Position numbers and translations under genes: made by a program | Assembly: GCF_056712565.1 (NCBI RefSeq) | Contig: NZ_CM160072.1 | Direction: 5' to 3' (one strand) | Length of the DNA stretch: 64,000 nt | The notes under the pieces: model-generated | What the model saw: the letters and a program-made list of their open reading frames with translations, nothing else | Database searches by the model: none | Told to the model about the DNA's origin: nothing | Shown here: positions 18,448 to 19,121 of the stretch, piece after piece | Layout of the letters: each line of letters starts with the position of its first letter | How positions within the stretch are numbered: position 1 is the stretch's first letter

Positions 18448-18567
18448 TATTCCTTTAACACTTTTTCAAAAATAAAGAGGAGATGGCTGCAAACAAATTA
18501 AATGCTTGTAGTCAGGTCTGTTCAGTAATTTTCAGATGCAATGATTCAGTTTATTTCTTCCAGAAAA

Positions 18568-18583
18568 TGTGACGACTTTCACA
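18568..18583. promoter_or_regulatory. perfect CRP/FNR-family palindrome TGTGA-N6-TCACA upstream of arcA
   Basis: tgtgacgactttcaca read directly, about 125 bp upstream of the arcA start in a 674-bp AT-rich intergenic region. Confidence 0.5.
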
Positions 18584-19121
18584 CCAGTGATGATATTAAT
18601 AATCGCAGTTAATAATATTTGATGCGGTTCTGATAAATGATAAAGAAACAAAATACGATAATGCATTAATACGCAAATATACGCAGAGTTATTCTTCGTT
18701 GTTAATTGATTGTTTTATTTTTCAGGAAATGCCTTTAAGTATAAAGCATTGATATTTATGTATATTTTAATATTCATTGCATATCTATGCGAAAGAATAA
18801 GGTGATTATTTTTCACAGCACTATTTTCACGGGATAACTATGACAGCACGGGCATTAAAAGCTAAGAAAATGAACTGTGATCTGACTGAGAGTTTTCTTT
18901 TAACATATGCAATAACAAGATATTAGGACCAAAATACATAGCTAAGTTATAAGATTTATGCAGCAAAACTGCATACAAAATTACTCCTGCTTAACATCAG
19001 TACAACATCTCCAGCAATAAACATGCGCAAGGGCAAAACCTGATGATTTTTCTATGGTGAGAGGTGGCTTTTTTTCGTATAAGGAAAGAAGTGAAACATT
19101 GTTTTAATAAAGGAAGATATT

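Follow-up and report, generated by a model that had tools for sequence, protein, structure and literature searches.

Upstream of the arginine deiminase gene arcA in Escherichia coli lies a perfect TGTGA-N6-TCACA palindrome that, judged from its sequence and its conservation, is very probably a cAMP-CRP site, and the promoter that it would serve is predicted to be a class II sigma-70 promoter driving the arcA-arcC-OTC-yfcC operon. In the mechanism that we propose, CRP centred at about -42.5 would overlap the missing -35 element and contact RNA polymerase, and the weak -10 hexamer (AATCAT) would fire only at the high cAMP levels found in the absence of preferred sugars. Arginine signals would probably reach the promoter via ARG boxes at about -135 and -251, which could be read by ArgR and/or by the islet-encoded ArgR paralog (STM4463/RosE in Salmonella), and anaerobic and architectural contributions may come from other conserved blocks upstream. 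The site itself, its conservation, its constant distance from the -10 and the Salmonella start are observed; the identity of the bound protein as CRP, its activating role and the reader of the ARG boxes are inferred. The mechanism is not new, the arginine deiminase (ADI) promoter being a further instance of a familiar promoter kind; what we predict is sugar-dependent control of an ordinary kind, set in an unusually long upstream region, and what the region adds to this is an upstream array with fixed spacing, together with the leader hairpin.

The arginine deiminase islet and its control region

The window (the whole stretch of DNA analysed, 64,000 nucleotides) is Escherichia coli sequence, and its 674-bp region upstream of arcA is 100% identical to that of strain 104, a chicken isolate (NZ_CP029164). 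The genes run in the order pyrI-pyrB-pyrL, ArgR paralog (13190-13678/13744, minus strand), YfcC-type transporter, ornithine carbamoyltransferase (OTC), carbamate kinase (arcC) and arcA; beyond arcA lie the divergent tabA/yjgK (plus strand) and then argI. The following features frame the control region.

17224-18447, minus strand: arcA (arginine deiminase), first gene of the arcA-arcC-OTC-yfcC operon (NCBIfam, E = 1.8e-185)
18448-19121, no strand assigned: arcA-tabA divergent control region, part of the ADI islet except for the last ~50 bp on the tabA side
19122-19574, plus strand: tabA/yjgK (YhcH/YjgK/YiaL family, E = 3.9e-57)

With the arcA start placed at the ATG at 18447 (the RefSeq start is 18444), the gap between arcA and tabA is 674 bp long. 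It had been described, from the sequence alone, as an AT-rich divergent region, which is borne out: its G+C content is 31% compared with 50.6% for the window, of which it is the most AT-rich 674-bp stretch.

This locus is the ADI islet known from Salmonella (STM4463-4467) and uropathogenic E. coli (PMC2328253), and the 2008 paper that describes it reports the islet in every Salmonella genome sequenced by then. Among the genomes that we sampled, the carriers include urinary and avian-pathogenic (APEC) isolates, and the full intergenic region is found in 596 of 5426 complete E. coli genomes (~11%). Islet-less E. coli genomes match only positions 19072-19114 (~43 bp) of it. The ADI operon is absent from K-12, which would place it outside K-12-based studies of CRP sites. 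The islet has reportedly been linked to replication of Salmonella within macrophages, in work attributed to Choi et al. in 2012.

A hidden gene in the gap seems unlikely, because the conservation sits in short, partly palindromic blocks; the open reading frames there encode 20-44 amino acids. An Rfam scan of positions 12000-23000 at E <= 1 returned no match in the intergenic region, and a terminator scan of the region likewise found none. The only Rfam hit, to Chlorobi-1 where the pyrL attenuator lies (12989-13045), was below threshold (24.5 bits against a gathering score of 50); it was dismissed and is probably a chance resemblance to a terminator hairpin. The five islet genes were found to include no Crp/Fnr-family gene dedicated to the operon, and their sole regulator is the ArgR paralog.

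The CRP-type box and the arcA promoter

The elements that define the proposed promoter are these.

18568-18583, no strand assigned: CRP-type box TGTGA-N6-TCACA, centred at -42.5 from the predicted arcA start site
18541-18546, minus strand: arcA -10 hexamer AATCAT (consensus TAnnnT across species), at a fixed offset from the box
18533, minus strand: predicted arcA transcription start (G), homologous to position 4731217 of Salmonella SL1344 by identical spacing

The sequence-only reading had pointed to a perfect palindrome about 125 bp upstream of arcA, and TGTGACGACTTTCACA is indeed found there, its centre (18575.5) lying 128 bp from the ATG at 18447 and 131 bp from 18444. All 10 positions of the CRP core are matched, and the promoter-proximal flank (A-TCACA-TT) agrees with the extended CRP consensus; in the 22-bp consensus, positions 6 and 17 and the distal flank are not matched. 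TGTGACGACTTTCACA is also the sole exact TGTGA-N6-TCACA in the 64 kb. Dinucleotide-preserving shuffles of the window contained 0.08 perfect matches on average, so that taken by itself the single-window match is just marginally beyond chance, suggestive and not decisive.

To place the box in a comparative setting, one genome per species was scanned with the ArcA protein, which gave 80 loci from Enterobacterales and Aeromonas and, with the window, 81 upstream regions. In 63 of the 81, NGTGA-N6-TCACN lies less than 200 bp upstream of the arcA start codon, at 114-132 bp from the ATG in every case, and its six spacer positions vary freely (0.07-0.76 bits). In pattern-free MAFFT alignments of 32 and of 53 sequences, GTGA and TCAC belong to the small set of columns that do not vary in the 260 bp upstream of arcA. 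The same picture is obtained within E. coli, where we compared four alleles chosen to span 93-100% identity to a 71-bp query (18530-18600) around the box: the 16-mer, the -10, the second box and ARG box 1 (both described below) are identical in all four, and the SNPs fall between the elements. Such a pattern of conservation marks a dimeric protein site under selection.

Orthologs without the exact pattern mostly carry one-base variants, such as CGCGA in Kosakonia oryziphila and TGCGA in Rahnella; the left half is TTTGA or CTTGA in Tatumella and Siccibacter, Aeromonas has TGTGA-N6-TCTAA, and no box was found in the arcA upstream region of Mangrovibacter. The Tatumella loci (three) and the Siccibacter locus combine an FNR-type left half (TTGA) with a CRP-type right half (TCAC), ~107-120 bp upstream of arcA, and may represent a lineage-specific shift of regulator specificity. 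In four Aeromonas loci, an ARG-box-like GTGAATATATTCA adjoins TGTGATCAATGTCTAA 170-200 bp upstream of arcA, an arrangement that amounts to a compact pair of ARG and CRP-like sites with a longer leader.

One could read the palindrome as a product of chance, or as the site of an unrelated protein such as YeiL, a poorly characterised third CRP/FNR member. The weak single-window statistic, with a perfect match in 8 of 100 shuffles, leans that way, but we regard this reading as very improbable because the box is conserved across genera with a free spacer and a fixed promoter geometry, which rule chance out. To our knowledge, CRP is the sole E. coli protein known to read GTGA-N6-TCAC.

The geometry can be anchored to a mapped start in Salmonella. 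For STM4467 of S. Typhimurium SL1344, a primary dRNA-seq start was reported at 4731217 in early stationary phase, with a leader of 89 nt, an operon listed as SL1344_4397-4394, and the -50 to +1 string TGTGAATCTCATCACATTAACAACCCAAATAAAATTCAATCATTGCTCCCG (Ramachandran et al. 2014, PMC3963941 Table S7). The box occupies -50 to -35 of this string, with its centre at -42.5, and AATCAT occupies -13 to -8. The E. coli spacing (16 + 21 + 6 + 7) is the same as that of Salmonella, and a leader of 86-89 nt would follow from the start predicted at 18533. Across species, TAnnnT recurs at a constant offset of 36-41 from the start of the box, while the box-to-ATG distance ranges from 117 to 135 bp. The -10 hexamer matches at 4 of 6 positions, including A2 and T6; a -35 element is absent, and TCACAT occupies its position. 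A poor -35 region is as expected for an activator-dependent promoter. A generic sigma-70 scan did not call the arcA promoter; its promoter-like matches at 18705-18676 and 18793-18764 were not adopted, their -10 parts not being conserved. A CRP-consensus site, a centre near -41.5 (by the Salmonella start) and a poor -35 combined with a recognisable -10 are three marks of a class II promoter that are present here.

The position would also suit an FNR class II promoter, and CRP sites (GTGA) and FNR sites (TTGA) are told apart by one discriminating base. Could the box instead bind FNR, or both CRP and FNR, and confer anaerobic induction in parallel to the ANR/ArcR systems? Activation by Crp/Fnr-family proteins is the rule for arc promoters in other bacteria (PMC4813224), and in Tatumella and Siccibacter the left half is of the TTGA type. 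Against this, the FNR consensus TTGAT-N4-ATCAA is matched at just 6 of 10 positions (GTGAA-AGTC-GTCAC), and the discriminating base is G in both halves, invariant in the 63 regions that carry the box. An FNR or dual site is therefore improbable, and of the two regulators named in the earlier suggestion, the evidence favours CRP over FNR.

A different alternative grants that CRP binds and assigns it a main role other than class II activation of arcA, namely repression, DNA bending, or regulation of tabA. The box does lie within a rigidly spaced array of ~500 bp that reaches the tabA -10, and architectural roles are conceivable. Its centre, however, is 511 bp from the predicted tabA start and 42.5 bp from the arcA start, its spacing to the arcA -10 is fixed, and the array from the palindrome termed PAL (below) to the CRP-type box persists in Serratia, which has no tabA there. 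We judge such a role to be quite improbable.

With class II activation of arcA by CRP as the preferred reading, the proposal of catabolite or Crp/Fnr-type control of the ADI cluster is upheld as a prediction, for which the conserved box, its fixed distance from the -10 and its location relative to the Salmonella start all argue. In full-text searches of the E. coli and Salmonella literature we found no link between CRP and the enterobacterial ADI operon, and neither there nor in the supplements of two Salmonella CRP papers did we find CRP-binding, crp/cya-mutant or glucose-repression data for the operon. STM4467 has no entry in those supplements or in the ones of two transcriptome papers.

In the class II CRP promoters of E. 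coli, of the galP1 and melR type, CRP is centred near -41.5. The arcA promoter resembles them in its 16-bp TGTGA-N6-TCACA core, its -42.5 centre (by the Salmonella start), the lack of a usable -35 and an imperfect -10. It differs in the unusual length of its conserved upstream region, which extends over at least 390 bp and contains ARG boxes among other blocks, and in that its CRP dependence is a prediction.

Another comparison is with ADI operons elsewhere, which are usually driven by FNR-type proteins, not by CRP. Crp/Fnr-family control of arc operons is documented in Pseudomonas, Bacillus and streptococci (PMC4813224). According to two papers that cite this work (PMC4813224, PMC11172107), P. 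aeruginosa arcDABC has an ANR box at -41.5 plus ArgR, and the arc promoters of B. licheniformis, Staphylococcus and Enterococcus combine ArcR with ArgR/AhrC. The layout predicted here is similar, an ADI operon with a Crp/Fnr-family dimer site at the class II position and ArgR-family sites upstream. In contrast to those systems, the E. coli half-sites are GTGA (CRP-type) and not TTGA (FNR/ANR-type), so the signal is predicted to be cAMP and carbon status, not oxygen. If the arcA promoter is indeed a CRP class II promoter, the ADI pathway would be switched by carbon status, whereas FNR-type oxygen sensors hold the equivalent promoter position in Pseudomonas and Gram-positives, and a testable wiring diagram follows, with CRP, ArgR-type and possibly ArcA inputs.

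ARG boxes and the array upstream of the box

About a dozen conserved blocks were found in the ~500 bp upstream of the CRP-type box in the 53-species alignment, and the main ones are listed below.

18618-18633, no strand assigned: second TGA-N6-TCA-type box (TCAGA-N6-TCAAA in E. coli; consensus TCTGA-N6-TCATA), 50 bp upstream of the CRP-type box, at about -92.5
18660-18677, minus strand: ARG box 1, TTTGCGTATTAATGCATT, centred at about -135.5, differing from WWTGMATWWWWATKCANW at 1 position and from the stricter E. coli consensus at 3
18698-18713, minus strand: ACAA-N-TTAACAA block resembling ArcA-P direct repeats, noted for its conservation
18742-18754, minus strand: IHF-consensus-like TATCAATGCTTTA (WATCAANNNNTTR) between the ARG boxes, a consensus match only
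18776-18793, minus strand: ARG box 2, TTCGCATAGATATGCAAT, with 2 mismatches to WWTGMATWWWWATKCANW, 116 bp upstream of ARG box 1
ATAGTTATT and AAATAAT: further conserved blocks of the 53-species alignment
18876-18880: lone conserved TCACA of the same alignment
18956-18976, no strand assigned: palindrome (T)TATGCA-N7-TGCATAA (PAL), about 390 bp upstream of the CRP-type box
18991-19007: TGTTG-N6-TGTTAA direct repeats upstream of the tabA -10
within 19014-19038: GCGCATGTTTAT, upstream of the tabA -10
19075-19082, plus strand: conserved tabA -10 region TCGTATAA, by homology to the start-site string of Salmonella STM4468

The sequence-only reading had seen no convincing ARG box in the region, which proved incorrect: two conserved boxes emerge when it is scanned with WWTGMATWWWWATKCANW, a degenerate gamma-proteobacterial consensus quoted in PMC11172107. 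In shuffles of the region, ~0.04 matches with at most 1 mismatch are expected, and 2.6% of the shuffles contain any; as a positive control, the argI operator (20650-20667) matches with 0 mismatches. With the strict E. coli ARG consensus, two matches at <=3 mismatches were obtained against 1.15 expected, a marginal enrichment; it took the degenerate consensus together with the cross-species spacing to bring the boxes out. That spacing is tight. Of 62 species, 59 have ARG box 1 at 92-93 bp from the centre of the CRP-type box. ARG box 2 is found at 205-210 bp, except in a few species in which it is undetected or displaced by ~10 bp; the 116 bp between the two boxes correspond to 11.0 helical turns. 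Both boxes are single, not a tandem pair with a 3-bp gap of the kind found in E. coli biosynthetic operators. Single ARG boxes have been reported for the arc promoters of B. licheniformis and S. suis (PMC11172107).

From their sequence, the candidate readers of these boxes are ArgR and the islet paralog, either of which could bind. The paralog had been called adjacent to the control region; its gene in fact sits at the opposite end of the operon, at a distance of 4.8 kb. The protein (13190-13678, minus strand) shares 36% identity with E. coli ArgR, and its recognition-helix motif is preserved (QSTVSRLL compared with QSKVSRML), with GSN in place of the arginine-binding GDD of ArgR, and its response to arginine may therefore differ. 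The Salmonella STM4463 paralog is said to activate STM4467, a report again attributed to Choi et al. in 2012. This regulation of STM4467 by STM4463/RosE concerns the same islet and an orthologous promoter, and STM4463/RosE binds DNA specifically (PMC2328253).

Around the paralog gene itself, some further elements were noted. An ARG box with 1 mismatch, ATTGAATATATATTCATG (13191-13208), overlaps the stop codon of the paralog, and a TATAAT-like hexamer (~13126-13131) that precedes pyrL follows roughly 40-50 bp downstream. Directly upstream of the paralog gene is an inverted repeat, TCACATT-ATAA-AATGTGA (13716-13733, minus strand), whose half-sites stand in reverse order relative to the CRP-type box; the Salmonella STM4463 promoter string differs (TGTGACAAATGTGATG).

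The second box is a poor fit to the CRP consensus (GTGA) and to the FNR consensus (TTGA) alike. The E. coli ansB promoter is co-activated by FNR at -41.5 and CRP at -91.5, and the arcA promoter is like it in having two TGA-N6-TCA-type boxes ~50 bp apart, at roughly -42 and -92. Unlike in ansB, the order would be reversed, with the CRP-type box proximal, and the distal box (CTGA/AGA-N6-TCAT) is poor for both CRP and FNR. The Salmonella site homologous to the block at 18698-18713 has been predicted as an ArcA site (PMC3848847).

The perfect TATGCA-N7-TGCATA of PAL (18957-18975) occurs once in the window, and more than 55 species conserve it; it is laid out like the inner pair of half-sites in a tandem ARG operator. 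On the tabA side, homology to Salmonella STM4468 places the predicted tabA start at the A at 19087. In the tabA leader, 19088-19106 (plus strand) contains a conserved TGAAACnnTGTTTTA that is partly like LacI/Cra-type operators.

The spacing of the blocks is held to 1-3 bp across genera over 18584-19082. PAL is centred -387.5 to -389.5 from the CRP-type box in 53 of 62 species, and the tabA -10 lies at -499 to -502 from it in 45 of the 48 species where it was detected. The tabA-arcA arrangement is present in 55 of 80 species, with a near-constant gap of about 660-675 bp. Sequence identity among 22 diverse species is only 41-58% over the 492 bp upstream of the box (29% is the random expectation), yet gap cells amount to 1.5% upstream of the box (17 of 497 columns) compared with 7.4% in the 5' leader (24 of 91 columns), the length of which varies by 18 nt across genera. 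Serratia keeps the array from PAL to the CRP-type box although its upstream neighbour is an OTC gene and not tabA, which indicates that this array is part of the ADI promoter.

A phased or looped nucleoprotein assembly may explain the fixed spacing, which is to be taken as a lead, the cross-genus comparison being confined to this region. Extending over about 500 bp, it provides an extra lead on long-range promoter architecture. A bolder reading is that the ~500 bp form one rigid nucleoprotein scaffold, in which hexamers of ArgR or its paralog would bridge three dispersed palindromes of ARG type (18660-18677, 18776-18793 and 18956-18976) across an IHF-type bend. Looping would then bring arginine and carbon signals, and possibly redox signals, together at the CRP-dependent promoter of arcA, perhaps coupled to the divergent tabA promoter. 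We put this forward as a doubtful possibility; it is raised because the dozen blocks keep their spacing within 1-3 bp across genera in which the sequence between the blocks is only 41-58% identical, while the leader varies in length by 18 nt.

The arcA 5' leader

Between the predicted start and arcA, two elements were recognised.

18487-18511, minus strand: leader hairpin (arms 18504-18511 and 18487-18494), with compensatory changes
18467-18479, minus strand: conserved T-rich tract CTCTTTATTTTTG (consensus CCTTTTTATTCT), between the hairpin and the Shine-Dalgarno sequence

As a general terminator the hairpin was rejected, since the stem abuts the T-run, and so looks like a terminator, only in some species of the Enterobacter clade; the two are 8-10 nt apart in E. 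coli and Salmonella. When RNAalifold was run on 34 diverse leaders, the structure was not predicted, the distant sequences being misaligned; on 20 alignable species it returned 6 pairs, 4 of them with compensatory changes. The covariation signal comes mostly from two clades, and the independent events are few. Pairing was kept in 95.8% of cells, compared with 80.4% in shuffles and 21-43% in slid controls. The stems differ by clade (CUGCAAA/UUUGCAG, CUAUGAA/UUCAUAG and CCAUG/CAUGG), and Serratia, Buttiauxella and Erwinia have other, different hairpin stems.
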